A stretch of 64,000 bases of DNA, taken from an uncultured Gemmatimonadales bacterium. GTDB taxonomy: Bacteria; Gemmatimonadota; Gemmatimonadetes; Longimicrobiales; RSA9. The notes under the pieces were generated by a model that saw only the letters and a program-made list of their open reading frames with translations, searched no databases and was not told where the DNA came from. This document shows positions 22,314 through 58,345 of this stretch, piece after piece; position 1 is the stretch's first letter; every line of letters starts with the position of its first letter. The stretch covers positions 32,973-96,972 of the forward strand of contig CAWAMW010000012.1 in assembly GCA_963783305.1 (NCBI GenBank), in the 5' to 3' direction. A program made the position numbers and the translations under genes.

Positions 22314-24200
22314 ATGTCCCGGCGAATCTTGCGTCTGCTGCTGATTGCTGCAGCACTTCCCGCCCTCTCCGCCTGTGATGGCGATACCACGGGTCCCGAT
22401 GTCGGACCCTCCTCTCTCACCGTGCGCGCATACGTGGACGCGGACGGTAGCGGCACGTTCGACACGGGGGACACCCCCCTGGGCGGCGAGACGATCCTGC
22501 TGACGGGCCCCACCGGCAGCTCTGGGCCAATGGTCAGCCGCTCGGCCACGACAAGCGCGGAGGGTCTGGCCACGTTCGACGGTCTGGAGCCGGGCAGCTA
22601 CTCGCTGTCGTATGATGGGGATGTGCCGGCCGGCGCGACGCTGGCAGGACCCACCACACCCGTGGTGGTGGCGCAGACGGTCCAGCAGGCGCTCGAGACG
22701 GAGTTCCGGTTCGTGAGCTTCCCCGGCGGGATCGCCGGCGTGCTGTACCGCGACGAGAACGCCAACGGTGTGTTCGACGAGGGGGACACGCCGGCGCCGG
22801 GGATCCCGGTGGCGGTGTACGCCGGCGCGTCGGCGGAGGGCGAGCCGGTGGCCGAGACGACCACGAGCCCCGGGGGCGCCTACGAGTTCGACGGCCTGCG
22901 GCCCGGCACCTACACGGTGGTATTCTCGCCGTTCCCGACCATGGAGCTGGAGGGCGGAAGCTCGATGACGGTGACGGTGGGAGCGGACGCGGTATCCACA
23001 CCGTCGGTGGAGTTCACCGGCAACCTGCTGAGCCCGATCGCCGAGGCGCGGGCGCTGGCCGAAGCCGACGACAGCGTCGTGGTGGCGGTGGAGGGGACGG
23101 TGGCGTGGCAGCCCTCGTTCTCGGATGACCTGTTCATTCAGGACGAGACCGCCGGGATCCAGGTGTATGCCGCGGCCGCGGACGTGCGGGATCTCGGCCT
23201 GGTGCCGGGCGATCGTGTGATCGTGGTGGGCGAGGTGGACCTGCGGTTCGGTGAGCCCCAGATCACGAACGTGTCGGCGCTGATGGTGCAGGGGAGCGGG
23301 GACGCCCCCACTCCGGTGCCGACCACGGCCGAGTCGATCAACGCGGGCGCGGTCGGTCACCAGCTGGTGTCGGTGGAGGGCGCAACGGTAACTGCGGTGG
23401 AGGTCCTGCAGTACGGCAACCAGTTCGTCACCCTGACCAATGCCGCCGGCAACGAGTTCGGCGTGTATGCTGACAGCCGGACTGGCGTGGAGGCCGCGCT
23501 CTGGACGGTGGGCGGCGTGTACGACGTCACGGGCGTCGTCGGCTTCGACAGCCGATACGCGTACGCCAACCGGATCGAGGTCCGGGGCACCGAGGATGTG
23601 GTGCCGGGCGACCAACCGATCAGCATCGCCGAAGCGAAGGCCGCGGAGGCCGGTACAGAGGTGTCCATCGCGGGGACGGTGATCGCCCAGCCGTCGTTCG
23701 GGGACGAGCTGTTCATCCAGGACGCGACCGGCGGGATCCAGATCTACGCCCGCGATGGAGACGTCCGCACGCTTGGCCTGGAGCCGGGCGATGTGGTGCG
23801 CGTGACGGGCACCACGGAAGACCGGTTCGGTGAGCGCCAGCTCACGAGCGTAACGTACCTGGCGGTGATCGGCAGCGGGGCCGCTCCGACGCCGACCGTC
23901 GTGACGCCGGCGGAAATCGCGTCCGGTGACCAGGTCCACCAGCTCGTGACGGTGGAGGGCGCCACCGTGCTGGAGGTCGATACCAGCTGGAACACCTTCG
24001 GGAACCAGCTCGTGCGCCTGCGGGCCCCGAACGGCGAGGAGTTCGGCGTCTACGTGGACAGCCGGACCGGCGTGGAGGCGGACGCCTGGACGGTGGGCGC
24101 GGTTTACGACGTGACGGGCGTGATCAACTACGACAGCCGCTACGATCCCTTCAGCTACCGAATCTGGGTGAGAGGACCTGGCGATGTGGTGGCGAACTGA
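22314..24200 (+). CDS. Lipoprotein with two Ig-like beta-sandwich repeats and two tandem about 190-aa OB-like modules
   Basis: Lipobox ALSAC. DADGSGTFDTGD / DENANGVFDEGD repeats. Duplicated LFIQDxxGGIQ[VI]Y...PGDxVxVxG...RFGExQ[IL]T modules. Confidence 0.7.
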   Translation: MSRRILRLLLIAAALPALSACDGDTTGPDVGPSSLTVRAYVDADGSGTFDTGDTPLGGETILLTGPTGSSGPMVSRSATTSAEGLATFDGLEPGSYSLSYDGDVPAGATLAGPTTPVVVAQTVQQALETEFRFVSFPGGIAGVLYRDENANGVFDEGDTPAPGIPVAVYAGASAEGEPVAETTTSPGGAYEFDGLRPGTYTVVFSPFPTMELEGGSSMTVTVGADAVSTPSVEFTGNLLSPIAEARALAEADDSVVVAVEGTVAWQPSFSDDLFIQDETAGIQVYAAAADVRDLGLVPGDRVIVVGEVDLRFGEPQITNVSALMVQGSGDAPTPVPTTAESINAGAVGHQLVSVEGATVTAVEVLQYGNQFVTLTNAAGNEFGVYADSRTGVEAALWTVGGVYDVTGVVGFDSRYAYANRIEVRGTEDVVPGDQPISIAEAKAAEAGTEVSIAGTVIAQPSFGDELFIQDATGGIQIYARDGDVRTLGLEPGDVVRVTGTTEDRFGERQLTSVTYLAVIGSGAAPTPTVVTPAEIASGDQVHQLVTVEGATVLEVDTSWNTFGNQLVRLRAPNGEEFGVYVDSRTGVEADAWTVGAVYDVTGVINYDSRYDPFSYRIWVRGPGDVVAN

Positions 24201-24222
24201 GGCACGAACCCAAGGCGTGGTG

Positions 24223-25266
24223 ATGAAGCATATGAACGATCAGATGAGTGGTCGCGTCCGGCGTTGGGCGGTGGCCCTGGCCGCCGTGAGCGTGCTGGCC
24301 GCGTGCGATGACGACGTGGCGCCCCCGACGGCCATCGAGGGGACGGGCTCGGTGGAGGGCCTGCTCTTCTACGACGCGAACCGGGATGGGCTGTTCGACC
24401 CCTCGGCGGGGGACGAGGCGCTGCCGGGCGTTCAGCTGGTCCTGCGGCAGCGCGGGACCGAGGACGTGCTCGCGGGGGGCACGGCGGTCACGGGAGACGA
24501 CGGCCGGTTCTCCATGACCGGCGTGCCGCTGGGGACGCACGAGCTTTTCGTGAACGAGAGCACGGCTCCCGAGTTCGCAACCTTCTGTAGGAACCCCATC
24601 CCGGTTTCCGTCTATCGCAACGAGACGCAGTTCGAGGATGTGGACGCGCGTCAGAGCTGCCTGGTCACGATCGCCGTGGCCGAGGAGCAGCCGCTGGGCG
24701 AATACGTGACGGTCTCGGGGATCGTGGTCTCCGGGTCAGGCATGATCCGGCCGGGGTACATCCACATCGAGGACGAGTCGGGCGGCGTGCGGCTGTTCGA
24801 CTACGCGCTGGACGACCTGGGCCTGGAGGTAGGGGACCGGCTCGAGGCCTCGGGGACGCTCGCGGCGTACGGCGGCGACTTCCAGATCACGGGGATCACG
24901 GTGAACGCGGTGGAAGAGGACGCGGCGGACCCGCAGCCGACGCTGGTGACGACGGCCGAGATCTCGGAGGCGGGGCTGGATGGCAAGGACCCACTGCTGG
25001 GTCGGCTGGTGAAGGTGGAGGGAGCCGAGCTGGTGAGTGAGTTCGGCGCGGACGGCATGCACTATCGCAACGCCCTGATCGACACGGGTGAGGGCGCGAC
25101 GATCGTCCGTCTGGAGGAAGCGGTGGGCGCCGGCACTCCCGAGATCGAGGCGCTGATGACGGTGGGCAGCTGCTACGACATAACGGGCGTGACGGGGACG
25201 TTCAGCCAGGAAGGGCAGATCTTCCCGCGCACGCCGGCTGACATCGTGGAGGTCGCATGTCCGTAA
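24223..25266 (+). CDS. Lipoprotein with one Ig-like repeat and one OB-like module (paralogous to the upstream gene)
   Basis: Lipobox VLAAC. DANRDGLFDPSAGD. YIHIEDESGGVRLF...VGDRLEASGTLAAYGGDFQIT. Confidence 0.65.
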   Translation: MKHMNDQMSGRVRRWAVALAAVSVLAACDDDVAPPTAIEGTGSVEGLLFYDANRDGLFDPSAGDEALPGVQLVLRQRGTEDVLAGGTAVTGDDGRFSMTGVPLGTHELFVNESTAPEFATFCRNPIPVSVYRNETQFEDVDARQSCLVTIAVAEEQPLGEYVTVSGIVVSGSGMIRPGYIHIEDESGGVRLFDYALDDLGLEVGDRLEASGTLAAYGGDFQITGITVNAVEEDAADPQPTLVTTAEISEAGLDGKDPLLGRLVKVEGAELVSEFGADGMHYRNALIDTGEGATIVRLEEAVGAGTPEIEALMTVGSCYDITGVTGTFSQEGQIFPRTPADIVEVACP

Positions 25267-44393: not shown

Positions 44394-44515
44394 CGGGCGA
44401 AGGTATGGCTCCGCCCACGCGCGAGCAACGGAGCCACTGGACCGGCTGGAGACGCAGGGCGTTGACAGCACCGCCGGTGACCGGGGATCTTGCGAGTCCC
44501 TCGAACCCGGTAACC

Positions 44516-45574
44516 ATGGCGGAATTGGACGAGCAGGAGACGGGGCCTTCGCTGAAGGACCTGATCGGAAGGCTGTCGACGCGCGCGGACCTGTCTTCGG
44601 ACGAAGCGCGAGCGGCGTTCGAGACGGTCATGGGCGGGCGGGCATCGCAGATCCAGATCGCCGGGCTGCTCGTGGGGCTACGCACGAAGGGTGAGGGTCC
44701 GGCGGAAGTGGCCGGCGGGGTGCGCGCCCTGCGAGAAGCCATGGTGCCCGTGGCCGCCACCGACCCCGATTCCCTCGTGGACACCTGCGGGACGGGCGGG
44801 GGCAGTCTCACCACGTTCAACATCTCCACCGCCGCAGCCCTCCTCGCCGCCGGAATGGGCGTTCGTATCGCCAAGCACGGCAACCGCTCCTTTACCTCGA
44901 AGTGCGGGAGCGCCGACGTGCTCGAGGAGCTCGGGGTCCCGATCGATCTGCCACCCGAGGCCATGGCGGAGATCCTGGACCGGGCGGGCATCGTCTTCAT
45001 GTTCGCCCCTCTGCTCCACCCCGCCATGCGCCACGTGGCTCCCGTACGCCGTGAGCTGGGGATCCCCACCATCATGAACCTGCTGGGTCCCTTGACCAAC
45101 CCCGCCGGGGCGCGCCGCCAGGTGGTGGGCGTAACCGACCCTGACCTCCTCGACCTCGTGGCTCGGGCGCTCCGGGAGCTCGGCCATTTCCGGGCGCTCG
45201 TCGTCTACGGCGAGCCCGGTCTCGACGAGCTCAGCCCCCTCGCCCCCACTCGGATCGCCGAGCTGGACGGGGACACGGTCCGGCAGCGCACCGTCTCTCC
45301 CGCCGACTTCGGCTGGAAGGGACTCGCTGCCACCGATCTCGCCGGCGGACTGCCCCCCCACAACGCGCGCGTCATTCTGGAGGTGTTCCGGGGCGAACGG
45401 CGCGATGCGGCCCGGGCCGCCGTGACGCTGAACGCCGCCGGCGCGGCGTACGTGGGCGGGATCGTGGACTCGCTCGAAGAAGGTGTCGAGCGTGCGGAAA
45501 CAGCGCTGTCGGAGGGTGCGGCGCTGGAGGCGCTGGACCGGCTGCGGACGGCTACGCAGCGGGTCACGGGGTAA
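44516..45574 (+). CDS. trpD: Anthranilate phosphoribosyltransferase
   Basis: QIAGLLVGLRTKGE, CGTGGGSLTTFNISTAAA, KHGNRS. ATG 44516 is preferred over the in-frame ATG 44405. Confidence 0.88.
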   Translation: MAELDEQETGPSLKDLIGRLSTRADLSSDEARAAFETVMGGRASQIQIAGLLVGLRTKGEGPAEVAGGVRALREAMVPVAATDPDSLVDTCGTGGGSLTTFNISTAAALLAAGMGVRIAKHGNRSFTSKCGSADVLEELGVPIDLPPEAMAEILDRAGIVFMFAPLLHPAMRHVAPVRRELGIPTIMNLLGPLTNPAGARRQVVGVTDPDLLDLVARALRELGHFRALVVYGEPGLDELSPLAPTRIAELDGDTVRQRTVSPADFGWKGLAATDLAGGLPPHNARVILEVFRGERRDAARAAVTLNAAGAAYVGGIVDSLEEGVERAETALSEGAALEALDRLRTATQRVTG

Positions 45575-45624
45575 GGCATCGAATTGCGATTCGGGGCGGC
45601 AAACCCCCGGCTCTGATGGGTCCC

Positions 45625-45786
45625 CTAACGCGCCGGGTGGGGCGTAACCACCGCCCGGAGCGTCCACGGACCGCGGATCGGCTGAACCGGCTTCTCCGAC
45701 CGCTGCTCGGCCCCGTTCAGGAGCACGACCGTGGTCCCCTTGCGTGTCCTCCGCCCCACGACGAACGGTCGGTCACTCCGCTTCAT
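45625..45786 (-). CDS. Unannotated 53-codon ORF translationally coupled to lexA (hypothetical basic protein)
   Basis: Its ATG overlaps the lexA TGA (ATGA). Translation: MKRSDRPFVVGRRTRKGTTVVLLNGAEQRSEKPVQPIRGPWTLRAVVTPHPAR. 46 of 53 codons end in G/C, like neighbouring genes. It falls below the ORF-track length cut-off. Confidence 0.35.
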   Translation of the reverse strand: MKRSDRPFVVGRRTRKGTTVVLLNGAEQRSEKPVQPIRGPWTLRAVVTPHPAR

Positions 45787-46406
45787 GCGTACCTCCGGAT
45801 CACGCCCACCACGATGCCCTGGACCATCACGCGGTCCGCACCGAAGTACATGGGCTGCATCGCTTCGTTCGCTGGCTGGAGCCGGACCTGGCCGTCCTTC
45901 TCCCGATAGAACTTCTTCACCGTGGCCGACTCCTGGTCCACCAGCGCCACCACCATTTCTCCGTTGTCGGCCGTCTCCCGCTGCTTCACCACCAGGTAGT
46001 CGCCGTCGCGGATCTGCTCTTCGATCATGGAGTTGCCGTTCACGCGCAGCACGTAATGCTCACCGCGGCCCAGCATCTCCTCCGGAACCGCGATCGTCTC
46101 CTGCCCCGCGATGGCCTCGATCGGCTCCCCCGCCGCCACATCGCCCATCAACGGCACCGGCACCGCGGTCAGCCGCATTTCGGTCGGCACCACCTCGATG
46201 GACCGGCTCTCGTTGTAGCCCTTTCGGATATACCCCTTCGTCCGCAGATTCTCGAGGTGTTCGTGCACCGTGGCCAGGGACGTGTAGCCGAACCGGTCCG
46301 CGATCTCCTCGAAGCTGGGCGCGTACCCGTGGTCGTCCGCGAAATCCGTGACGAAGTCGAGGATCTCCCTCTGCTTCTTGGTGAGCGGCTTCTTCTGTGA
46401 CAGCAT
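45783..46406 (-). CDS. lexA: SOS repressor LexA
   Basis: Winged-helix N-terminus, cleavage site VAAGEP, nucleophile NGNSM, and TVKKF lysine. ATG 46406 is preceded by GGGAGG. The ORF-track extension to 47009 is spurious. Confidence 0.92.
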   Translation of the reverse strand: MLSQKKPLTKKQREILDFVTDFADDHGYAPSFEEIADRFGYTSLATVHEHLENLRTKGYIRKGYNESRSIEVVPTEMRLTAVPVPLMGDVAAGEPIEAIAGQETIAVPEEMLGRGEHYVLRVNGNSMIEEQIRDGDYLVVKQRETADNGEMVVALVDQESATVKKFYREKDGQVRLQPANEAMQPMYFGADRVMVQGIVVGVIRRYA

Positions 46407-46456
46407 TCTGGGCCTCCCGAGGGGCGAGCGCCGTAGTGGTCCGGCCATAGCGGCCG

Positions 46457-46502
46457 CCGAACAAAGTCCGAAGCCAAGGATAACCCGAACAACGACCGAA
46501 AC
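46457..46502. promoter_or_regulatory. Two copies of a 16-nt motif CCGAACAA[CA]G[AT]CCGAA (GAAC-N7-GAAR direct repeats) in the lexA/trpC divergent spacer: candidate LexA operators
   Basis: CCGAACAAAGTCCGAA at 46457-46472 and CCGAACAACGACCGAA at 46485-46500 (14/16 identical). Confidence 0.35.
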
Positions 46503-46511
46503 GCAAGGGCA

Positions 46512-47309
46512 ATGGGGATACTGGACGAGATCGTACGGGAGAAGAGGGCGGAAGTGGGGCGGCTCGCGCCGTGGGCGGGAGCGTTGCGGAAGCAGGCGGA
46601 GGGGATGCCGGCGCCGCGCGATTTCGCGAGTGCGCTGCGGGGCCCGAAAGGGGTGGCGCTGATTGCGGAGGTGAAGCGGAAGTCGCCGTCCGCGGGTTGG
46701 ATCCGGCGGGACCTGAACGCGGCTGGACTGGCCTCGGCGTACGCGTACGGGGGTGCGTCGGCCATCAGCGTGCTGACGGACGAAGCGAACTTCGGCGGTA
46801 CGCGGGAGGACCTGGAGGCGGTGCGGGGGGCGGTGGAAGTGCCGGTGCTGCGGAAGGACTTCCTGGTGGAGCCGGTGCAGGTGTACGAGTCGCGTGCGAT
46901 GGGCGCGGACGCGGTGCTGCTGATCGTGCGGATCCTGGAGGATGTCCGGCTGCGGGAGCTGCTGGCGCTGGCGCGTGAGCTGGGGATGGCGGCGCTGGTG
47001 GAGACGCACGACGAGGCGGAGCTGGAGCGGGCGCTGTCGGTGGGGGCGGATATCGTGGGGATCAACAACCGTGACCTGAAGCGGTTCGAGACGGATCTCG
47101 CGGTGGGGGAGCGGCTGGCCCCGGGCATCCCCGCGGACGTGGTGGTGGTGGGGGAGAGCGGGATCGAGTCGGCTGCGGACGTGGATCGGATGGGAGCGGC
47201 GGGTGTGGACGCCGTTCTGGTGGGGGAGTCGCTGGTCCGGGCGGATGACCCGGTGGCGGCGGTGGAAGCGCTCGTGGGTCGGCCGCGGAGGGGGCGATCG
47301 ACGTCATGA
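46512..47309 (+). CDS. trpC: Indole-3-glycerol phosphate synthase
   Basis: [24 protein letters not shown] motifs. Confidence 0.9.
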
Positions 47310-47983
47310 GCGCTGCCGCGAGCCTCTTCGTGAAGGTGTGCGGGGTGTGCGATCCGGGCGACGCGGCGTATGCTGTAGCGGCGGGGGCCACGCACGTGGG
47401 CGTGATCCGTGTACCTGGCAGCCGTCGAGCCCGGCCGCTGGAGGTGGCGCGGGACGTCATCGCGGCGGCCGCGGGGGCCCGCAGGGTGGGAGTCTACGTG
47501 GACGCCCGGGAATCGACGATCCTGCGGGAAGCGGAGTTCCTGGGGCTGGACGTGATCCAGCTGCACGGCGGCGAGGGACCGGAGCGGACCGCCGCGCTGA
47601 CGGAGCGTGGCTACGAGGTCTGGAAGGTGGTCAAGCCGGCGCGCGGGAGCGACCTTCTGGTGGCGGCGGAGCGATTCGGTTCGGCGGACCTGATCCTCGT
47701 GGAGGGCCAGAGTTCCCAGGGCCATGGCGGCGTGGGAGCGCGCTTCCCGTGGGAGGAGGTGGCGGCGGTTCTGGACGCGCTGCCGCCGGGGACGGCCCTC
47801 GGAGTGGGAGGCGGGCTGACGCCGGAGAACGTGGGGGAGGCGGTGCAGCGGTTCCGGCCGAAGCTGGTGGATGTGAGCTCCGGGGTGGAGCTGGAGGTGG
47901 GCCGCAAGGACCGCGCGCTCGTACGATCGTTCATAGAGGCGGCGCGGTCGCGGGACGAGGCGGGAACACAAACGAATTCGTGA
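47306..47983 (+). CDS. trpF: Phosphoribosylanthranilate isomerase
   Basis: VKVCGV, IQLHG and LILVEG-type motifs. 4-nt overlap with trpC. Confidence 0.85.
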
Positions 47984-48000
47984 AGAAGAGTGGTGGGTGG

Positions 48001-49182
48001 ATGGAAGCAGGCGTGAAGGGCGAGGGTCGATTCGGGGCGTACGGGGGGCGGTACGTGCCCGAGACGCTGATAGCCGCGCTGGACGAGTTGACGGAGGCGT
48101 ACGCCGCGGTGGCCGGGGACGAGAGCTTCCGGGAAGAGCTGGAGTCGCTCTGGCGTGACTACGTGGGCCGGCCCACGCCGCTGTACCGGGCGAGTCGTCT
48201 GGGGGAGGCAGCGGGGTGCGAGGTGTGGCTGAAGCGGGAGGACCTGAACCACACGGGCGCGCACAAGATCAACAACACGCTGGGGCAGGTGCTGCTGGCG
48301 CGGCGGATGGGGAAGCGGCGGATCATCGCGGAGACGGGGGCGGGCCAGCACGGCGTCGCAACGGCCACGGTGTGCGCGCTGTTCGGCCTGGAGTGCATCG
48401 TGTACATGGGTGCGGAGGACACGCGGCGACAGGCGCTGAACGTGGTCCGCATGGAGATGCTGGGAGCGGAGGTTCGGACGGTGGAATCGGGGACCCGGAC
48501 GCTGAAGGACGCCACGAACGAGGCGATCCGCGACTGGGTGACGAACGTGGAGGACACGCATTACATTATCGGGTCGGTGGTGGGTCCGGACCCGTACCCC
48601 CGTATGGTGCGGGATTTTCAGGCCATTATCGGCCGCGAGGCGCGTCAGCAGGTACTGGATCGTACCGGCCAGCTCCCGGCCGCCGTCGTGGCATGCGTGG
48701 GAGGTGGCTCCAACGCCATCGGCATTTTCCACGAGTTCATCGCAGACACCCAGGTCGAGCTGATCGGCGTCGAGGCCGCGGGAGAGGGGCTGGATTCCGG
48801 CCGTCACTCCGCGTCTCTCGGTGCGGGCACGCCCGGGGTGCTGCACGGGTCGCTGAGCTATCTGCTCCAGGACGAAGGCGGCCAGGTGGCTCCCGCGCAC
48901 TCGATCTCAGCAGGGCTCGACTACCCCGGTGTGGGGCCGGAGCACTCGTGGCTGCACGACACGGGGCGAGCCGAGTACGTGGCGGTGGACGACGTCTCCG
49001 CGCTCGACGCTTTCCACCGGCTGGCTCGTCTGGAGGGGATCATTCCGGCGCTGGAGAGTGCTCACGCGGTGGCGTATGTACTGGAGGCGGGCGCGCGGTG
49101 GCGGGACCGGGGTCCGGTGTTGATCTCGCTGAGTGGTCGCGGCGACAAGGACGTGGCGCAGGTCGCGGATCAGCCGGGGTAG
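48001..49182 (+). CDS. trpB: Tryptophan synthase beta chain
   Basis: [22 protein letters not shown] (PLP lysine), GGGSNAIG. Confidence 0.92.
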
Positions 49183-49207
49183 AGGTGGTCAGGAAGGAGG
49201 CGATCGG

Positions 49208-50947
49208 GTGAGGGATACTCGGGACGAGGAAGAACTCGACGGTGACGTGCCGGCTCTGCCGGTGGCCGAGGTGGAGAAGCTCATGACCACCGTGGCCAAA
49301 GCGCTGCGTGCCTTCAACATGTACCAGTCCAACAACCCTGTCTTCCAGCGATTCCGTGGCGCCCTCCGCGACGGGTTCACCTCGGTATGGGAGCTGGCGG
49401 ACAAGCTCCCACTGGCCGTCACGGAAGAAGGGTTCGCCTACCGCAACAGCGTCTTCGCCGTCGGACGGGGCCGTGACAACCTCGCCTTCGCGTTTTACAA
49501 GGATGGCGTTCGGAGCCTGACGTTCTTTCCGGGCTTCGAGGACGAGGTCGCCGCCTTCCTGGACGCCGTGAGTCGCGCCATGAAGCAGGACCAGGACTCG
49601 GACGACCTGATCACGGTGCTGTGGGAAGAGGACTTCTCCGCGCTGCAGTATGGGTATGTGGATCTGTTGATGGAGGGAGCGCAGGTCCCGGAAGGAGCGC
49701 TGTCGTACCCTACGGAGCTGGACGCGAGCTTCAAGCTCGAGCTGCGGCCGGAGCAGGGCGAGGAGGGCGAGGAGGAGCACGGGTCAGAGGCCTCGGGGGC
49801 GGCGGGCGGGCCTGCGCCGAAGACGGGGCTCTCCCGCGACGATTTCGATGAGACGCTGTACTTCCTCGACCCTGGGGAGATGGCGGCGCTGCGCACCGAG
49901 GTCGAGGTGGAGATGGAGCGGGAGGTCCGGCGCGACGTGCTGAACGCGCTGTTCGACCGCCTCGAGGAGCCGGGTGAAGCGCGGCAGACGCAGATCCTGG
50001 AGATCGTGGAACAGCTGCTCCCGCTCTTCCTGGGCCACGGGTACATGCGCGGGGCGGGGCTGATCCTGGAGGAGCTCGACCGGGCGCAGGGGGATGAAGG
50101 GGCGCTGGGGGACGCGCTGCGCGAGCGGGTCGAGCGGCTTTTCTCCCGGCTGAGCGATGCGGAGGTCCTGGAGCAGTTCGTCCAGGCCGTGGAGGACGGA
50201 GCTGTGGCGCCGGACTCCGACGAGGTGAACCTCTTCTTCGGACGACTCCACGCGCACGCGCTCCCCGTGCTGATCCGGTTTTCGGAGATGTCGGAGTCGG
50301 ACAGCGTGCGAAGCCGGCTGTCGTCGGCCATCGATGGGCTGGCCGGACGGTACCCGAAGCAGGTGAGCGAGCTGCTCACGAGCGACGAGCCGGCCGTGGT
50401 GCGAGGCGCCGCCCGGGTGGCGGGTCGGATGGGGATGTCCCAGGCGGTGGAGGGGCTGGACAGGGCGCTCCGGCATCCGGACCGCGATGTTCGTCTGGCC
50501 TCCGTCGAGGCGCTGGTGGCCATCCGGATGACGACGGCGCTCCAGGCGCTGATCACGGCCCTGGACGATGAGGACCGTGAGGTCCGGATCGCGGCGGCCA
50601 AAGCGCTGGGGGCGGTGCGCTTCGCCTCCGCCCGGGGCGTGTTCGAGTCCATCATCGACGGGAAGCGGATTCGGGACGCGGATCTCACGGAGAAGATGGC
50701 GGTCTTCGAGGCTTACGGTGCGATCGGCGGGACCACGGCCGTGGAGCGATTGAGCGAGCTTTTGAACGCCAGGGGATTCCTGGGCCGCCGACCGCCAACG
50801 GAGATACGGGCGTGTGCGGCGCTGGCCCTGGGGCAGGCGGGCACGCCTGTGGCGCGGAAGGCGCTGGCCCGGGCCAAATCCGATGAAGACTCGATCGTGC
50901 GCAACGCGGTTCTGCGGGCGCTGAAGGAGGAGGTGGGTTCGCGATGA
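49208..50947 (+). CDS. HEAT-repeat protein with a distinct N-terminal domain and an acidic linker
   Basis: GTG start 7 nt after GGAGG. C-terminal HEAT-like repeats (DRDVRLASVEALVAI, DEDREVRIAAAKALG, DSIVRNAVLRAL). Confidence 0.65.
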   Translation: MRDTRDEEELDGDVPALPVAEVEKLMTTVAKALRAFNMYQSNNPVFQRFRGALRDGFTSVWELADKLPLAVTEEGFAYRNSVFAVGRGRDNLAFAFYKDGVRSLTFFPGFEDEVAAFLDAVSRAMKQDQDSDDLITVLWEEDFSALQYGYVDLLMEGAQVPEGALSYPTELDASFKLELRPEQGEEGEEEHGSEASGAAGGPAPKTGLSRDDFDETLYFLDPGEMAALRTEVEVEMEREVRRDVLNALFDRLEEPGEARQTQILEIVEQLLPLFLGHGYMRGAGLILEELDRAQGDEGALGDALRERVERLFSRLSDAEVLEQFVQAVEDGAVAPDSDEVNLFFGRLHAHALPVLIRFSEMSESDSVRSRLSSAIDGLAGRYPKQVSELLTSDEPAVVRGAARVAGRMGMSQAVEGLDRALRHPDRDVRLASVEALVAIRMTTALQALITALDDEDREVRIAAAKALGAVRFASARGVFESIIDGKRIRDADLTEKMAVFEAYGAIGGTTAVERLSELLNARGFLGRRPPTEIRACAALALGQAGTPVARKALARAKSDEDSIVRNAVLRALKEEVGSR

Positions 50948-52380
50948 CCACCCATACGTACGTGGACAGCACGGCGGCGCTCCAGAAGCAGGGACAGAAG
51001 CTGCTGAGCACCCTCTACTCCGCGCTGCAGGCGCTCAAGCTCTTCCCGCTGGAGAACCAGACGGTCCAGAAGGCGCTGCAGGACCTTCACCGCGCGGCCA
51101 CGACCGTGGTCGAGCGGGAAGACATGGTCGAGCTGGGGCTCGTGGGCGACTTCATCTTCATCAACGACGTCCGCATCCGCCTCGACCTCTCCACGTACGC
51201 CGCGTTCTCTCTCATCTCCAACTCGCTGGCGAAGCATGAAGTGGGGACGGTCGTGATCGATCGGGCCATCGAGCGATCGGAGTGGCCGCCGTTCCTGTCG
51301 CTGTTGCTGCAGCAGCCGGCGGAGCCGGCATTCGATGGGTTCACGAGCCGCCTCAAGTCGACGCCAGTCACCCATATCCACGTCGGTCCGGAGCGCGAGC
51401 GGGCGGCGATCGACCAGGACAACGACCTGGCGAAGGAGCAGGCGAAGCGCGCCTACTTCCAGACCGTGGAGGTGGCCAAGAACGTCCTGGGTGATGTGCG
51501 CCTGGGCAAGTCGGTAAACGCGCGGCGGGTGAAGCGGGCGATCCAGTCCATCGTGGATCAGGTGCTCAACAACGAGACGTCCATGATGGGGATGACCGCG
51601 CTCCGTGACTACGACGTCTACACGTTCACGCACAGTGTGAACGTGTGCATCTTCAGTGTGGTGCTCGGTCAGAAGCTGGGGCTGAACAAGATGCAGCTGT
51701 ACGAGCTGGGACTCGGGGCGCTCTTCCACGACCTGGGGAAGATGCGGATCGATTCGGAGATCACGAACAAGACCAGCGGGCTGACGGACGAAGAGTTCCA
51801 GCAGATGCAGCAGCACACCACGGAAGGGCTGCTGGCGCTGTTCGACATGCATGGCTTCAGTGAGCCACCGTTCCGGGCCATGCTCATGGCGTACGAGCAC
51901 CACATGAAGACCGATCTGACGGGCTACCCGAAGAACAAGCGGCCCCGGGATCCCACGCTGTTCAGCCGGATCGTGGCCGTGGCGGACAGCTTCGATGCGG
52001 CCACGAGCCAGCGCTCCTACCAGGCGGTGCCATTGCGGCCGACGGATGCGCTCCAGGAGATGCGGGACAATCCGGACCGCGGCCTGGACCCGCTCCTGGT
52101 GAAGGCGCTCATCAATGCGACGGGGATCTATCCCGTGGGCACGCTGGTCATCCTGGATACGCACGAAATGGCTGTCGTAAGCGCGCCGAACCCGGACGCT
52201 TCCAGGATGAGTCAGCCGATCGTCACGATCATATACGACGCCATGGGGCGCCCATTGAGCGAGCCCTTCAGCGTACAACTTGGCGCCGACGGCCTGGAGA
52301 GCGGCCAGTCGCCGCGGACCATCATCAAAACCACGAGAGCGGACAAGTATGGAATCGATGTCGGCGCCTATTTCCTCTGA
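50944..52380 (+). CDS. HD-GYP domain protein (putative cyclic-dinucleotide phosphodiesterase) with an N-terminal domain related to that of the upstream HEAT protein
   Basis: ALFHDLGK...QQHT...EHHMKTDLTGYPK. ATGA overlap with the upstream gene. Confidence 0.75.
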   Translation: MTTHTYVDSTAALQKQGQKLLSTLYSALQALKLFPLENQTVQKALQDLHRAATTVVEREDMVELGLVGDFIFINDVRIRLDLSTYAAFSLISNSLAKHEVGTVVIDRAIERSEWPPFLSLLLQQPAEPAFDGFTSRLKSTPVTHIHVGPERERAAIDQDNDLAKEQAKRAYFQTVEVAKNVLGDVRLGKSVNARRVKRAIQSIVDQVLNNETSMMGMTALRDYDVYTFTHSVNVCIFSVVLGQKLGLNKMQLYELGLGALFHDLGKMRIDSEITNKTSGLTDEEFQQMQQHTTEGLLALFDMHGFSEPPFRAMLMAYEHHMKTDLTGYPKNKRPRDPTLFSRIVAVADSFDAATSQRSYQAVPLRPTDALQEMRDNPDRGLDPLLVKALINATGIYPVGTLVILDTHEMAVVSAPNPDASRMSQPIVTIIYDAMGRPLSEPFSVQLGADGLESGQSPRTIIKTTRADKYGIDVGAYFL

Positions 52381-53185
52381 CGCCGCGCCCGCCGCGGAGC
52401 GGCTCGCCCGGCGACTCGAGCAGCGCTCCGAGGCCGGGCGGCGACTCCTGGTTCCCTACGTCACCGCCGGATTCCCGACCGGGGCCGACACGGCGCCACT
52501 GATGGCTGCGCTCGTCCGGGCGGGCGCGGATGTGATCGAGCTCGGCGTTCCCTTCAGCGATCCGCTCGCCGACGGCCCCGTGATCCAGGGCAGCTCCCAG
52601 ACGTCCCTCGACGCCGGTGGCTCCCTGCGGGCCACGCTGGACGCGCTCCGTGAGTTCCGCGAGCACGATCGGGAGACGCCCGTGGTGATCTTCACCTATC
52701 TGAACCCGGTTTTCCGCCACGGTCTGGACGCCTTCATTGCGGACGCCGTGGCCGCAGGGGCGGACGGAGTCCTGCTCACCGACCTTCCGCTCGGCGCCGA
52801 TCCCGGCCTGGAGGCGCGGCTGGAACGTTCGCCCCTGGCGCTGGTGCGCCTGATCGCTCCCACGACGCCGCCGGAGCGCGCCCGCCGGATCGCCGAGCGC
52901 GCACAGGGCTTCCTGTACTACATCTCGCGCACCGGGGTGACCGGCGCCCGGAGCGAGGTGCGGGAGGCGCTCAGCACGGAGGTCCGGCGGCTGCGGGACG
53001 CCGCGTCGGTGCCTGTGGTGGTGGGCTTCGGGATCGGCACGTCCGAGCAGGCCCGGGAAGTGGCGGGCATGGCCGATGGCGTGGTCGTGGGGAGCGCGCT
53101 CATCGAGGTGATCCGGGAGGGCGGTGTGGAGGCGGCCGAAGCCTTCGTCCGCGACCTTCGCGCGGGGGTGGACGCGGCGCGGTAG
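52349..53185 (+). CDS. trpA: Tryptophan synthase alpha chain
   Basis: LVPYVTAGFP and ELGVPFSDPLADGPVIQ. The only available starts (ATG 52349 or 52358) overlap the HD-GYP gene by 23-32 nt. Confidence 0.88.
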   Translation: MESMSAPISSDAAPAAERLARRLEQRSEAGRRLLVPYVTAGFPTGADTAPLMAALVRAGADVIELGVPFSDPLADGPVIQGSSQTSLDAGGSLRATLDALREFREHDRETPVVIFTYLNPVFRHGLDAFIADAVAAGADGVLLTDLPLGADPGLEARLERSPLALVRLIAPTTPPERARRIAERAQGFLYYISRTGVTGARSEVREALSTEVRRLRDAASVPVVVGFGIGTSEQAREVAGMADGVVVGSALIEVIREGGVEAAEAFVRDLRAGVDAAR

Positions 53186-53209: not shown

Positions 53210-54883
53210 TTACCGCGCGAGTCGCTCCTCCACGTCGGGGTCCGGCTCCACGAAGATCGTGGCCACGCGGTCCGGGATCACGGTCCCTGGGGGTGCGTTC
53301 CGGGGGCTCCGGACATGCTTCCGCCGGGTCCAGTCCACGGGGACCGTGCCGGAGGTCCGCCCCTTCGAGTTCACCGCCGCCAGGACGGCCGCCTCCAGCA
53401 GGTCGCGTCGAGGCGGGTTCTGCTGGCGGTCGCCCCAGCGCAGGATCACGTGCGCGCCGGCCATGTCGCGGGCGTGAAGCCAGATGTCGTCGGGCGACGA
53501 GTGGTGGAAGGTAAGCTCGTCGTTCCCCCGGCCGCTCCGACCGACGCGGATCTCGAGTCCGCCGCTGCTCCGGAAGGTGCGGTAGGGGAGGCGCTCGGCC
53601 CCGTCCTTTCCCGGACCCTCCGACGGCCGCACGTCGGCGACCCAGCGAGCCACCTCAGCGGGATCGGCGGTGCCGCTGTCGAGGGACTCCAGCAGGGACT
53701 CCAGCTGGTCGCGCTCCGCCGCGGCCTCACGGGCCCGCGCGGGCAGCCGCGCCGCCGCCCGCTCCCGCTTCCGCGCCCGGTCGTACATCGCCTCGGCGTT
53801 CTCGACGGCGGACAGCGTCGGGTCCAGCTCGATCTGCACCGTGCCGCCCTCGAAGTCCGGCAGCTCGACCGTCGTCGCGCCTCTCGGCACCTGGCGGAGC
53901 CGCGCCATGAGCAGGTTGGCGCGCTCCCGGAACCCGGCGGCCAGGTCCGGCGCGGACTCCGCCTCCTCGGCGAGGGATAGGGCCTTTCGCGCGACCCGCT
54001 CCAGGCGCTCTTCCAGGGCGGTTCTCACCTCCGGCGCGATCCCCGACGGCGCCTGGTCCCGGCCGGCTTCCTCGAACGCGGTCAGCAGCGAGTCCGTGGG
54101 TCGCGATTCCGTGCCCGGTAGCGGGAGCGGATAGGGCTGCCCGCCGCGCACGGCCAGAACGCCCGGGTGGGCCGGGGGGCGAGCGGCCAGCGCGCGATAG
54201 CGGCTGTACGCGGCGTCCACGTCGTCGGGGAGCGGCGCCAGGATGGTGGCCGCGTTGAGGGAGCTGGTCCACGCGAGCGAGCGAAGGAGCACGCCCCGGC
54301 GGTCGGACTCCGGCGCGAGCCCGAGGAGCTCATGGAACCGGTCGGACGGGACCGGCTCATCCACGCCTTCCCGGGGCGCCATCCCCGAGGGCGGGGCATA
54401 GCGGGCGCCCGACCGCAGGGCGCGGCCGCCTGCATCGCGGGTCCAGAGCGCCGAGAGGATGACGCCACGCGGATCGAGGGCCAGTACGTTCCACTGGTTC
54501 GTCATCAGCTCCACGACCAGACGCGACGCGCGGTCCGGCCCGCCCGCATCCAGGTCGATCGCCACCAGCCGCTCGTCCGCCGGCGCGCTCACGCCCCGTA
54601 CGCGAGGCCGCCGCTGTGTCCGCACCCGTCGACCACCCCACCCTTCCGCCCCATCCACCTCGCTCTCGCCCGCGCCCGCGCCCGCGCCCGCGGCGATCGT
54701 CCGGATCCAGCCGCGGGTCGGGTGCAGCTCCCACACCAGACGCGCGTCATCCAGCTCCAGGATGAGGCGGCGCGCGTCCGAATCCAGCCGGAGCCCCCGG
54801 AGCCTTCGTCCCGCCATCCGCTGGTGGAGCTCGCGCGCGAGATAATGCACCAGCAGTGAGTCGTAGAGTATCGGCTTGGGCAT
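53210..54883 (-). CDS. NFACT-family protein (RqcH / fibronectin-binding protein A-like)
   Basis: NFACT-N-like N-terminus, central Arg/Glu-rich helical region, and C-terminal NFACT-R (DUF814) motif DIWLHARDMAGAHVILR. Confidence 0.7.
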   Translation of the reverse strand: MPKPILYDSLLVHYLARELHQRMAGRRLRGLRLDSDARRLILELDDARLVWELHPTRGWIRTIAAGAGAGAGESEVDGAEGWGGRRVRTQRRPRVRGVSAPADERLVAIDLDAGGPDRASRLVVELMTNQWNVLALDPRGVILSALWTRDAGGRALRSGARYAPPSGMAPREGVDEPVPSDRFHELLGLAPESDRRGVLLRSLAWTSSLNAATILAPLPDDVDAAYSRYRALAARPPAHPGVLAVRGGQPYPLPLPGTESRPTDSLLTAFEEAGRDQAPSGIAPEVRTALEERLERVARKALSLAEEAESAPDLAAGFRERANLLMARLRQVPRGATTVELPDFEGGTVQIELDPTLSAVENAEAMYDRARKRERAAARLPARAREAAAERDQLESLLESLDSGTADPAEVARWVADVRPSEGPGKDGAERLPYRTFRSSGGLEIRVGRSGRGNDELTFHHSSPDDIWLHARDMAGAHVILRWGDRQQNPPRRDLLEAAVLAAVNSKGRTSGTVPVDWTRRKHVRSPRNAPPGTVIPDRVATIFVEPDPDVEERLAR

Positions 54884-55086: not shown

Positions 55087-55908
55087 ATGAGCACGGGCTC
55101 GAAGCGCAGGCGGACGACGATCCGAAGCCTGCTGGAGATGAAGGAGCGCGGCGAGAGCATCGTTGTGCTCACCGCGTACGACTACCTGTTTGCGCGCCTC
55201 GTGGACGAGGCCGGCGTGGACATCATCCTGGTGGGCGATTCGCTGGGGCAGGTCGTGCTCGGCTTCGATTCCACCATCCCGGTCACGCTCGATCACATGA
55301 TCCACCACGCCCGGGCCGTGCGCCGCGGTGTGGAGCATGCGCTCCTGGTGGTGGACATGCCCTTCCTCAGCTTCCACGTGGCGCCGGACGAAACGGTGCG
55401 GAACGCGGGTCGGCTCCTGAGCGAGACGGGCGCCGAGGCGGTGAAGGTCGAGGGCGGGAGCGTGACGACGTGCGAGCACGTCCGTCGACTGGTCTCCGCG
55501 GGGATCCCGGTCATGGGACACGTGGGACTCACGCCACAGTCGGTTCACGCCCTGGGCGGCTACCGGGTGCAGGGACGGGATGGTGAGGGTGCCGACCGAA
55601 TCCGCGCGGAGGCTCAGAACCTGGAGGACGCCGGGGCGTTCGCCATCGTGCTGGAGCTGCTGCCGGCGCCGCTGGCGGCGGAGATCACGGCCGCGAGCGG
55701 CGTTCCTACCATAGGAATCGGTGCCGGCGTGGATTGCGACGGCCAGGTCCTGGTCCTGTACGATATGCTGGGTCTGAACGACGCCTTCAACCCGCGGTTC
55801 CTGCGGCGGTTCGCCGATCTCGCGGGCGCTACGCGAGCGGGGCTCTCCGAGTACGTGAAGGCGGTGCGCGAGAGGGACTACCCGGGCCCGGAACACAGTC
55901 ACGAGTGA
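55087..55908 (+). CDS. panB: 3-methyl-2-oxobutanoate hydroxymethyltransferase
   Basis: [21 protein letters not shown] motifs. Confidence 0.9.
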
Positions 55909-56783
55909 AGACGGTAACGACGGTCGAGGAGCTCCGCCTAGAGGTGGCGGAGTCCCGGAGACGTGCGGGCACCGTGGTGGCGGGCGGCGACAATGGGGTC
56001 GTGCTGGTGCCCACCATGGGCGCGCTTCACGAGGGCCACCTCTCGCTGGTGGACCGCGCGCGGGAGCGAGGGCGGCTCGTGGTCATGTCCATCTTCGTGA
56101 ATCCCACCCAGTTCGGACCGGGCGAGGACTTCGAGGCCTACCCCCGGGACCTGGAGCTCGACAGGGAGCTTGCGGAACGCCGCGGTGTAGACGTGCTGTA
56201 TGCACCCTCCACGGACGAGGTGTACCCGGCAGGACCGTCGCAGGTCAGGGTGGTGCCGGGGCCCATGGCCGAGCGGCTCTGCGGCCTCAGCCGACCCGGC
56301 CATTTCGAGGGGGTGCTGACGGTCGTGGCGAAGCTTTTTGGAATGGTTCAGCCGGACGTGGCGGTCTTTGGCCGCAAGGACTATCAGCAGGTGACGTTGA
56401 TCCGCCGGATGGTGCGGGATCTGGACATGCCCGTGCGGGTAGAGGCGGCGCCGATCATTCGGGAGGCGGACGGACTGGCACTGTCCTCGCGCAACGTGTA
56501 CCTGTCGGAGGCCGAGCGGGCCCGGGCGCTGAGCCTCTCCGAGGGCCTGTTCGGGGCGCGGTCGGCGTTCGAGGAAGATCAGGTGCGGGACCCGGAGCGG
56601 CTGAAGGCGCGGGTGCGGGGTACCATGCGCGACGCGGCGGTGGAGCCGGAGTACATCGAGCTGGTGGACCCCGATTCGCTGGAGCCGCTGACGGAGGCCC
56701 GCGACGGCGCTGTGCTGGCGCTGGCGGCCAGGGTTGGAGCGACGCGATTGATCGACAACGTCATTCTGGGACAGAAGGAATAG
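55905..56783 (+). CDS. panC: Pantoate--beta-alanine ligase
   Basis: [33 protein letters not shown] start overlaps the panB stop (GTGA). Confidence 0.9.
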
Positions 56784-56794
56784 AGGAGGCGGTC

Positions 56795-57193
56795 GTGCGG
56801 CGGAGCATGTGCAAATCCAAGATCCATCGGGCCACGGTGACCGATGCCAACCTCGCCTATGAGGGGAGCATTACACTGGATCCGGTGCTGATGGCCGCGG
56901 CCGATATCCTGGAATACGAGAAGGTCCACGTCGTGAACATCTCGAATGGCGCGCGCTTCGAGACGTACGTGATCACCGGTGTGGAGGGCGCGGGCGACGT
57001 CGTTCTGAACGGCGCGGCGGCCCGTCTGGTCCAGACGGGCGACAAGGTCATCATCATGAGCTACGCCAGCTACGACGAGGTCGAGCTCGAGAGCTTCGAG
57101 CCGCTCCTCGTCTTCGTGGACGACCGCAACCGGATCCGGCCGCACCCGCAGCGCGAGACGTCGGGCGCCCAGCTCCGGATCGACCCGGCGTAG
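56795..57193 (+). CDS. panD: Aspartate 1-decarboxylase proenzyme
   Basis: [10 protein letters not shown] and YEGSITLD (Gly-Ser self-processing site). Confidence 0.9.
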
Positions 57194-57195
57194 GA

Positions 57196-57774
57196 GTGGC
57201 GCCGCTCCACCCCCTGATCACCGCGGCCGCCGAGGGCCGACTCCCGGACTGGGCGGTGGTCTCGCCCGAGCGTCGGGAGCACGTGGCTCGCGTGGCCGCC
57301 CTCATGGACGAGTGGGCGGAGCGGGCGCGTCTCTGCGACGACGACCGCGCTCGCTGGCGTGCCGCGGGGCTCCTCCACGACGCGTTGAGGGACGCGGACT
57401 TCGACCAGCTTCGGCCCATGGTGGGGCCCACGCTCCGGGACAAACCCGGCAAGATGCTCCACGGGCCCGCGGCGGCCGCGCGACTGCGGACGGAGGGAGT
57501 GGACGACGAACCGCTCGTGCTCGCCATCTCGTGGCACACGCTAGGGCACCCGGATTTCGACACCCTCGGCAACGCGCTCTACCTGGCGGACTACACCGAG
57601 CCGGGTCGCGACTACGAGTCGGAGTCGCTGGCGGCGAAGCGGGACCGGGTGCCGGACGAGCTGGAGGCCGTGCTGCTCGACGTCGCTACGGACCGAATCC
57701 GCCGCTCACTGAAGAAAGGACGGCCGCTGCTGGAGCCGACAGTGAGGTTCTGGAACGCGCTGGTGGAAGGCTGA
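57196..57774 (+). CDS. HD-domain hydrolase, YqeK-like
   Basis: R.HV.RVA...AGLLHDALRD...WHT.G...YLADYTEPGR pattern. Confidence 0.6.
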   Translation: MAPLHPLITAAAEGRLPDWAVVSPERREHVARVAALMDEWAERARLCDDDRARWRAAGLLHDALRDADFDQLRPMVGPTLRDKPGKMLHGPAAAARLRTEGVDDEPLVLAISWHTLGHPDFDTLGNALYLADYTEPGRDYESESLAAKRDRVPDELEAVLLDVATDRIRRSLKKGRPLLEPTVRFWNALVEG

Positions 57775-57775
57775 G

Positions 57776-58345
57776 ATGACGATGAGCCGCTCCCGGACCC
57801 TCGTAGCCGTCGGGCTGTTCGTCGCCCTGGGGCTCGTGGGCGCGTTCATCGCATCCGCCGTGGCCGGGTGGGGGAACGAGGAGTCGCCCACCGACGGCGG
57901 CCAGCCGGCGCCCGCGGCGGACTTCGGTGACGCGTCCCGGGTGCGTGTCGAAGTGCTGAACGGCGCCGGCAAAATGGGACTCGCCCGTGACGCCACGCAC
58001 GTGCTCCGCGGGCACGGCTTCGATGTCGTTTTCTTCGGCAACGCCGCTCGCTTCGACCACGCCCGTTCGCGCGTGATCGACCGCACCGGGGAGCTGGAGC
58101 ATGCGCGGGCCGTGGCCGCCGCGCTGAGAATCGACTCCATGGCCACGGCCATCGACTCATCTCTCATGCTCGAGGTGACCGTGGTGCTGGGAGAGGACTG
58201 GCCGCCCGCCGCGGCCCCGGCCCCCGAGCGGCTCTGGCTCGATCGCCTGCGCGACATGGTGCCCGGCGACAGCGGAGCCGTCGACAGCGGAGCCATCGAC
58301 AGTGCGGCCGGGAGCGTTCCCGCAGAGCCGACGGGAGGTGGCTGA
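57776..58345 (+). CDS. LytR_C-domain membrane-anchored protein
   Basis: N-terminal TM helix. VRVEVLNGAGKMGLARDATHVLRGHGFDVVFFGNA is typical of the LytR C-terminal domain. Confidence 0.6.
   Translation: MTMSRSRTLVAVGLFVALGLVGAFIASAVAGWGNEESPTDGGQPAPAADFGDASRVRVEVLNGAGKMGLARDATHVLRGHGFDVVFFGNAARFDHARSRVIDRTGELEHARAVAAALRIDSMATAIDSSLMLEVTVVLGEDWPPAAAPAPERLWLDRLRDMVPGDSGAVDSGAIDSAAGSVPAEPTGGG

Follow-up and report, generated by a model that had tools for sequence, protein, structure and literature searches.

The DNA considered here is a stretch of 64,000 nucleotides (nt) from an uncultured Gemmatimonadales bacterium (assembly GCA_963783305.1, contig CAWAMW010000012.1, positions 32,973 to 96,972 of the forward strand). 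It is referred to as the window, and positions are counted from its first letter. Within Gemmatimonadota the bacterium belongs to Longimicrobiales, and Longimicrobiales and Gemmatimonadota are among the names that homologues of both inserted proteins bear. In the window trpB and trpA, the genes for the two subunits of tryptophan synthase, are separated by a gene pair encoding a HEAT-repeat protein and an HD-GYP protein, and the pair is tied to its neighbours by very short spacings and overlaps. The locus comprises the following features:

45783-46406, minus strand: lexA, divergent from trpC; its translation has the LexA N-terminus MLSQKK...
46512-47309, plus strand: trpC (indole-3-glycerol-phosphate synthase), first gene of the string; Pfam IGPS, 280 bits
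47306-47983, plus strand: trpF (phosphoribosylanthranilate isomerase), overlapping trpC by 4 nt; Pfam PRAI, 132 bits
48001-49182, plus strand: trpB (tryptophan synthase beta); TIGR00263, 615 bits (cut-off 392)
49191-49199, plus strand: Shine-Dalgarno-like stretch AGGAAGGAGG before the HEAT gene, read from the sequence
49208-50947, plus strand: HEAT-repeat gene, GTG start, 579 amino acids; Pfam HEAT_2, 118 bits
50944-50947, plus strand: ATGA overlap of the HEAT stop and the HD-GYP start, read from the sequence
50944-52380, plus strand: HD-GYP gene, 478 amino acids; Pfam HD_5, 62 bits, with HD_5/HD at residues 221-383
52349-52380, plus strand: overlap of the HD-GYP gene and trpA, of 32 nt if trpA starts at ATG 52349 or 23 nt if it starts at ATG 52358
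52349-53185, plus strand: trpA (tryptophan synthase alpha), last gene of the string; TIGR00262, 241.6 bits (cut-off 102)

By their matches to IGPS, PRAI, TIGR00263 and TIGR00262 the flanking genes pass as true trpC, trpF, trpB and trpA, and all four are co-oriented. Translation of trpB starts at ATG 48001, 17 nt past the trpF stop, and ends at the TAG at 49180-49182. A spacer of 25 nt lies between this stop and GTG 49208 of the HEAT gene, a start favoured by the alignment of homologues over the internal ATG 49283 and preceded, 8 nt 5' of it, by GGAGG (49195-49199). The possible starts of trpA are limited to ATG 52349, ATG 52358 and TTG 52280, with no in-frame ATG, GTG or TTG between 52358 and the conserved TrpA core; trpA must therefore initiate inside the HD-GYP gene. 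The spacings (25 nt, the ATGA, a trpA overlap of 23-32 nt) and coordinates given in a preliminary description of this DNA, made from the letters alone, were all confirmed from the sequence, TTG 52280 being the only alternative start.

The same description had proposed that the string trpC-trpF-trpB-HEAT-HD-GYP-trpA looks like one translationally coupled operon, and this proposal stands. Promoters and terminators were sought between 45500 and 55200. On the plus strand from trpC to trpA (46512-53185) neither a sigma-70-like promoter nor an intrinsic-terminator-like site was detected, in a scan that is weak for a non-model phylum at 70% GC, and the sole candidate promoter region of the operon is the 105 nt (46407-46511) between lexA and trpC. 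The Rfam scan, which covered the whole window, returned no riboswitch, leader or other RNA. The overlaps, which recur across the phylum (see below), and the absence of predicted internal signals suggest that the string may be transcribed as a single mRNA. The GC content of the window is about 70%, and the third-position GC of the two inserted genes (0.86 and 0.89) lies within the range of 0.81-0.92 found for the genes of the window. Since both genes match the window in this respect and have hundreds of full-length homologues, the arrangement is not a chance pattern of open reading frames.

To follow the arrangement in related bacteria, one genome per GTDB species was scanned with an alignment of homologues of the HEAT protein, and the best 80 of 316 relatives were kept. 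Gene order was read by mapping the window proteins onto these 80 loci, the denominators being loci with enough flanking sequence. The loci belong to Gemmatimonadota (Longimicrobiales, Longimicrobiaceae, Longimicrobium, Gemmatimonadales and Gemmatimonadaceae), except one labelled Eisenbacteria and one labelled only 'uncultured bacterium', and their HEAT proteins are 32-64% identical to the window copy. The HEAT gene was directly preceded by trpB in 66 of 70 loci and directly followed by the HD-GYP gene in all 67, and trpA stood directly 3' of the HD-GYP gene in 58/59, a count that includes a locus with a split match (L006). Usually trpD, lexA on the opposite strand, trpC and trpF were present as well, and the pair was embedded in trp genes in each of three other divergent lineages that were looked up. 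The arrangement thus predates the split of Longimicrobiales and Gemmatimonadales, the two main orders of the phylum, and the place among trp genes, which most of the loci show, is probably ancestral.

These counts bear directly on the possibility, raised in the preliminary description, of a recent neutral insertion, to which a mobile element or an anti-phage defence cassette that landed between trpB and trpA may be added. Insertion at this site has precedent: Kagan et al. 2008, citing Xie et al. [quoted passage not shown] The present pair resembles those inserts in consisting of unrelated genes that lie between trpB and trpA and are co-oriented with them. It differs from them in being a defined two-gene signalling module that is conserved on the scale of a phylum and chained to trpA by overlapping start and stop codons. 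A common arrangement in both orders removes the reading as a recent neutral insertion, and the gene order was kept while HEAT proteins diverged to 32-64% identity. Moreover, the base composition of the pair equals that of the host genome, no integrase, transposase or repeat flanks it within the window, and the surrounding genes are all housekeeping genes. Insertion of a mobile or defence element in recent times is thus hardly credible.

Two related candidates were rejected as well. Recent horizontal acquisition was ruled out by base composition. As to membership in a defence system, a PADLOC search gave no match for the HD-GYP protein, and for the HEAT protein it gave a weak match to HEAT-ARM_XIII (E 1e-10) which is confined to the generic repeats and covers 106 of 1972 positions.

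The overlapping starts are themselves conserved. When for each locus the start codon nearest to that expected from the protein alignment was taken, 46 of the 78 related loci had an HD-GYP start overlapping the HEAT stop by 4 nt (-4), and a further 5 had one overlapping it by 1 nt (-1). The trpA start chosen in this way fell inside the HD-GYP gene in 50 of 66 loci, at -32 in 26 and at -23 in 14, and an ATG was present at -32 or -23 in 36/67. These internal ATGs come from the codons of a conserved C-terminal peptide of the HD-GYP protein, ...YGI(D/N/H)V..., and arise only if Tyr is encoded by TAT and Asp, Asn or His by NAT. At the two sites that make the ATGs, codons ending in T were enriched relative to the rest of the gene (41% vs 22%, p=0.002, and 63% vs 21%, p=8e-5; values not corrected for phylogeny). 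Such a codon bias is the pattern that selection for an overlapping trpA start would produce.

Conservation of this kind could also be the mark of a true link to tryptophan (Trp) or indole, in which the N-terminal domains sense a metabolite of the Trp pathway (indole, indole-glycerol phosphate, serine or Trp) or the HEAT solenoid binds tryptophan synthase, so that second-messenger turnover and the synthesis of Trp or indole regulate each other. The slot lies exactly between the two subunits of one enzyme and was kept across both main orders; trpA translation is chained to the HD-GYP gene by an internal start which the codon bias preserves; coupled translation would mean that all four proteins are made at roughly comparable rates, something not usually seen with a signalling enzyme; and the N-terminal domains of both inserted proteins are highly conserved and have no known ligand. 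On the other side, domain searches of the proteins detected no known Trp- or indole-binding domain, and several lineages keep the pair away from the full set of trp genes.

The clearest of these lineages is a Gemmatimonadales metagenome-assembled genome (locus L036, contig CAWDZR010000035.1, 1-13638) with the gene order truA, lexA, HEAT, HD-GYP, folB, a DUF481 gene and panB. Here trpD, trpC, trpF, trpB and trpA are all gone from the locus, and yet both genes of the pair have their full length and none of the catalytic motifs is damaged; either this lineage is auxotrophic for Trp or its trp genes have moved elsewhere. At another locus (L015, 4642-9930) polysaccharide-export genes and an opposite-strand response regulator gene lie 5' of the pair, to which only trpA is attached, the linkage to trpB being absent. 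A third locus (L005, 2105-6780) has trpF directly before the HEAT gene without trpC or trpB, and in a fourth (L052, 234-1553) an insertion-sequence-like transposase is found just 5' of the HEAT gene.

The pair was also found in an unrelated cluster in three loci of a marine clade (L082, 3089-14529; L083, 1217-10803; L086, 5080-16453), one member of which is named 'marine benthic group'. Identity to the window proteins is 33% for the HEAT protein and 39-43% for the HD-GYP protein, and the cluster, which is conserved, runs glcD-like, glcE-like, PduO-type cobalamin adenosyltransferase, HEAT, HD-GYP, alpha/beta-hydrolase, SnoaL-like and GlcF-like Fe-S proteins. The HEAT and HD-GYP genes have kept the ATGA overlap in two of these loci. 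In L082 the hydrolase gene also begins 32 nt inside the HD-GYP gene.

Because L036, L015 and the marine clade keep the pair away from the full trp set, the constant unit is the HEAT and HD-GYP pair, and the trp location is not required by it. The preliminary description had left two alternatives, namely turnover of a second messenger co-regulated with Trp or indole synthesis, or a pair that uses the operon as a carrier. The second fits the data better, whereas dependence on Trp or indole is opposed by the same three cases. We regard a true link of the pair to Trp or indole as unlikely. One form of such a link is that of a dedicated regulator, in which the undescribed domain shared by the two proteins (see below) binds a Trp-pathway metabolite such as indole, or the HEAT protein docks on TrpA or TrpB, and Trp or indole production directly sets cyclic-dinucleotide levels, or the reverse, throughout Gemmatimonadota; this we consider slightly more doubtful still.

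The HD-GYP protein consists of an N-terminal domain (residues ~9-150) which it shares with the HEAT protein, two long helices (153-219), the catalytic domain (221-383) and a small C-terminal beta domain (~395-450), the last presumably resembling the C-terminal extension of COG2206-type HD-GYPs. It had been noted earlier that its role would hinge on whether the catalytic residues stand up in a proper alignment, and they do. The motifs of the window protein are FHDLGK and EHHMKTDLTGYP, the GYP being read as TGYP. The metal ligands H...HD...H...HH...D that define the HD superfamily are present and align with their counterparts in PmGH and V-cGAP3, and the GYP motif and the Lys of HDxGK, which define the HD-GYP domain (PROSITE PS51832, Pfam HD_5), are present as well. 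Across 58 homologues H230, H262, D263, K266, H291, H319, H320, D348, G327 and P329 do not vary, and at least 90% of these homologues retain Y328. When these homologues were used as a profile, the PDB matches were V-cGAP3 (5z7c, E 1e-26), PmGH (4mcw, 4e-23), PA4781 (4r8z), DvhD and Bd1817. The AlphaFold2 model has a mean predicted local distance difference test score (pLDDT) of 73.5, lower in parts of the catalytic domain, and its top Foldseek matches were HD-GYP structures: PmGH, Bd1817, DvhD, PA4781 and V-cGAP3, at E 1e-6 to 9e-4. The closest relatives of solved structure are active phosphodiesterases of the HD-GYP class. Since all HD-GYP metal ligands and the GYP motif are kept, the protein is likely an active phosphodiesterase.

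The active site departs from the solved enzymes in two respects. Instead of the canonical signature HHExxDGxxGYP the family reads EHHMKxDLTGYP, with invariant M321 in place of Glu and Leu in place of Gly. In addition, the position of the PmGH Glu that, as found by Bellini et al. in 2014, reportedly binds a third metal is occupied by an invariant Tyr226, and therefore a two-metal site is expected. As for the substrate, cyclic di-GMP (c-di-GMP) would be the default and cyclic GMP-AMP (cGAMP) a real alternative.

It is in this light that a different role of the HD-GYP protein has to be weighed: it could act on another substrate (3'3'-cGAMP, pGpG or another nucleotide or phosphoester), or be a non-catalytic receptor or scaffold like some proteins of the RpfG family. 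This is compatible with any of the other readings. The best PDB sequence match, V-cGAP3, is cGAMP-specific, and the two departures named above would fit such a role, as would the replacement, in the marine clade, of the last metal-ligand Asp (D348, AVADxFDA) by Glu (ALTEAYDA); catalytically inactive HD-GYP regulators have been documented (10.1101/2021.11.05.467447). Yet PmGH, PA4781 and DvhD, which bind or hydrolyse c-di-GMP, match almost equally well, and invariance of the core two-metal ligands, of the HDxGK Lys and of the Gly and Pro of GYP, together with the near-constant Tyr, would be unusual for a pseudo-enzyme. That the protein is something other than a c-di-GMP phosphodiesterase appears improbable to us, to about the degree of the Trp link.

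Among characterized proteins, the nearest in layout are stand-alone cytoplasmic HD-GYP phosphodiesterases of the Bd1817/COG2206 type (PA4108 of P. aeruginosa, VC2497 of V. cholerae, BB_0374/PdeB of Borrelia), in which an N-terminal domain that is not a receiver is likewise followed by a long helix, then by the HD-GYP domain and finally by a short extension at the C-terminus. Two of them, PA4108 and VC2497, are known to hydrolyse c-di-GMP (10.1101/2021.11.05.467447). Foldseek aligned the whole HD-GYP model with Bd1817, with a template modelling score of 0.57 on the target, and there is a weak match to DUF3391, a domain of this family, on the helix preceding the HD-GYP domain. In contrast, the window protein has two additional N-terminal helices, and it has, encoded immediately 5' of it, a separate HEAT protein with a paralogous copy of its N-terminal domain, a partner for which no counterpart is described in the Bd1817 family. 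DUF3391 (PF11871) was rejected as an assignment for the N-terminal domain: the match (E 0.034) scored 15.1 bits against a cut-off of 27.8 and aligned residues 153-195 with profile positions 102-135, that is with only the last ~35 positions. Weak DUF3391 matches were seen in 39 of the 58 homologues (best 4e-6) and, as far as shown, were confined to the helix before the catalytic domain. With a sub-threshold match only, the HD-GYP protein was not placed in the Bd1817 family. PmGH (4mcw), V-cGAP3 (5z7c), PA4781 (4r8z) and DvhD (9rbz) share with it the catalytic fold, the H/HD/H/HH/D ligands, the HDxGK Lys and the GYP motif, and differ from it, apart from the active-site substitutions, in their sensor parts, which are GAF, tandem HD-GYP, REC and PAS, respectively.

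The HEAT protein is built of an alpha/beta N-terminal domain (~15-150), a disordered acidic linker (155-208), a helical region (209-375) and the HEAT repeats (~380-575). The five stretches that match HEAT_2 all lie within residues ~380-575, a match found in all 66 homologues examined, and in the Pfam scan no family covered residues 1-375. Its AlphaFold2 model has a pLDDT of 86, with the helical part (209-578) above 90 and forming a continuous solenoid to the C-terminus; with this model Foldseek matched only HEAT/armadillo solenoids, including alphaRep.

In total 1078 homologues of the HEAT protein were found. A profile of its N-terminal 375 residues, searched against 1.84 billion representatives, matched 2721 clusters (50% identity), 257 of them below 1e-30, and the best 150 of the 2721 all have the HEAT architecture of ~560-600 amino acids or are fragments of it. 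A search from six of the more divergent of these best 150 gave matches labelled without exception Gemmatimonadota or 'marine benthic group', and every named relative of the HEAT protein that was found belongs to Gemmatimonadota. One protein (P0361) starts with a C-terminal peptide of TrpB (...SGRGDKDV...) and runs into the HEAT N-terminal domain; it reflects either a frame-fusing error of assembly or annotation, or a real trpB-HEAT read-through in one lineage.

The two inserted proteins begin with the same domain, which the preliminary description had missed and which is new here, judged from sequence profiles and models. The first ~110 residues of the HEAT protein are homologous to the first ~115 of the HD-GYP protein, as was recognised by eye and then by comparison of profiles. 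With alignments of 81 and 80 locus sequences hhalign gave E 4.5e-9 and a probability of 96% over 104 columns, and with small alignments it gave E 1e-5; the controls, one reversed and 20 column-shuffled profiles, all scored E 0.016 or worse. In both AlphaFold2 models the elements follow in the same order, H-H-E-E-E-H-E-H-H-E, at nearly the same positions. The domain comprises ~140 amino acids, stands at the N-terminus of both proteins and has no Pfam match. Since both proteins begin with it, it suggests that they form a complex. Galperin and Chou proposed that their N-terminal domains may help stand-alone HD-GYPs to form the active dimer; their census lists the RpfG, Bd1817 (DUF3391) and PmGH families and several new sensor domains, and makes no mention of HEAT partners, tryptophan or Gemmatimonadota (10.1101/2021.11.05.467447). 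As with RpfG and other partner-dependent HD-GYPs, the output may hinge on a dedicated protein-protein interaction. RpfG, in contrast, is a REC-domain response regulator that partners GGDEF and PilZ proteins, whereas the HD-GYP protein of the window lacks a REC domain and would partner a HEAT protein with which it shares the N-terminal domain.

Taking these observations together, we consider it on balance probable that the pair is an autonomous, Gemmatimonadota-specific and vertically inherited HEAT/HD-GYP phosphodiesterase module for whose expression the trp operon serves as a carrier. The HD-GYP protein would be the cytoplasmic catalyst, acting most likely on c-di-GMP or a related cyclic dinucleotide by means of a two-metal centre, and the HEAT protein its partner, a paralogous copy of the N-terminal domain of the enzyme fused to a HEAT solenoid. 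Through the shared domains the partner may bind the enzyme, either instead of or in addition to homodimerisation of the latter, and the solenoid would regulate or localise the enzyme. Insertion of the module between trpB and trpA would date from before the split of Longimicrobiales and Gemmatimonadales, and the start of trpA within the 3' end of the HD-GYP gene would have locked it in place. The module would consequently be made whenever the trp operon is transcribed and translated, and one physiological outcome may be an increase in phosphodiesterase upon derepression of the operon.

Several points weigh against this explanation of the pair as an autonomous module on a carrier. Conservation on the scale of the phylum and a selected trpA overlap are also to be expected from a true functional link to Trp synthesis. 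The genes truA, lexA and panB, which lie outside the operon, are syntenic too, so that general stability of the region may account for part of the conservation. The signature HHMK.DL.GYP with its invariant M321, and the invariant Tyr226 at the position of the third-metal Glu of PmGH, mean that substrate and activity could differ from those of the characterised enzymes. Finally, the proposed heteromer is deduced from domain homology and gene adjacency, and a fusion of the HEAT and HD-GYP proteins was not found among the best 150 of the 2721 representatives.

The wider neighbourhood is made up of purL, pssA, psd, purC, purB, htrA, tal, truA, trpD and the opposite-strand lexA upstream, and of a convergent NFACT-family gene, panB, panC, panD, aspS and phoH downstream. 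The order trpD, lexA on the minus strand, trpC (44405-46511) is kept in nearly all of the 80 related loci, which means that throughout the phylum one promoter region is common to the gene of the SOS repressor and the trp operon; the position of lexA is likewise kept in nearly all of them, and the lexA homologue of locus L001 matches LexA_DNA_bind and Peptidase_S24. The NFACT-family gene (53210-54883, minus strand; NFACT_N and NFACT-R_1) is related to RqcH/FbpA, has 24 nt between its stop and that of trpA, and was also found in L084. On the plus strand at 55087-58345 panB, panC and panD precede the genes of a small stand-alone HD-domain protein (57196-57774) and of a LytR_C protein, a string that recurs in L001 and places a second conserved HD-family gene near the trp locus. 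Farther away, an open reading frame of 360 amino acids (24184-25266, plus strand), with genome-typical codon bias and no Pfam match, sits between the genes of an SdrD/BOF-domain protein and of a TonB-dependent-receptor-like outer-membrane protein of 1117 amino acids.

The literature on HD-GYP proteins with trpB/trpA or with HEAT repeats, on tryptophan synthase or c-di-GMP in Gemmatimonadetes, and on Gemmatimonas yielded no described link of the two systems, as the preliminary description had surmised. With no precedent found there, the HEAT/HD-GYP module, its conservation across the phylum and the chain of overlapping genes are apparently undescribed.

Gemmatimonadota are abundant in soil and sediment, and to our knowledge their signalling has hardly been studied. 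The HEAT/HD-GYP module is probably among the most conserved second-messenger components of this phylum, and we know of few cases as widely conserved in which a foreign gene pair lies between the two subunit genes of one enzyme and is translationally chained to them. It offers a testable case for the old question of whether non-trp genes inserted in trp operons are passengers or participants, and cultured Gemmatimonas or Longimicrobium should make it accessible to experiment. A response of the pair to Trp or indole would newly connect amino-acid biosynthesis with cyclic-dinucleotide signalling; without such a response, the pair would be a clean example of an operon serving as an expression carrier, locked by overlapping genes.

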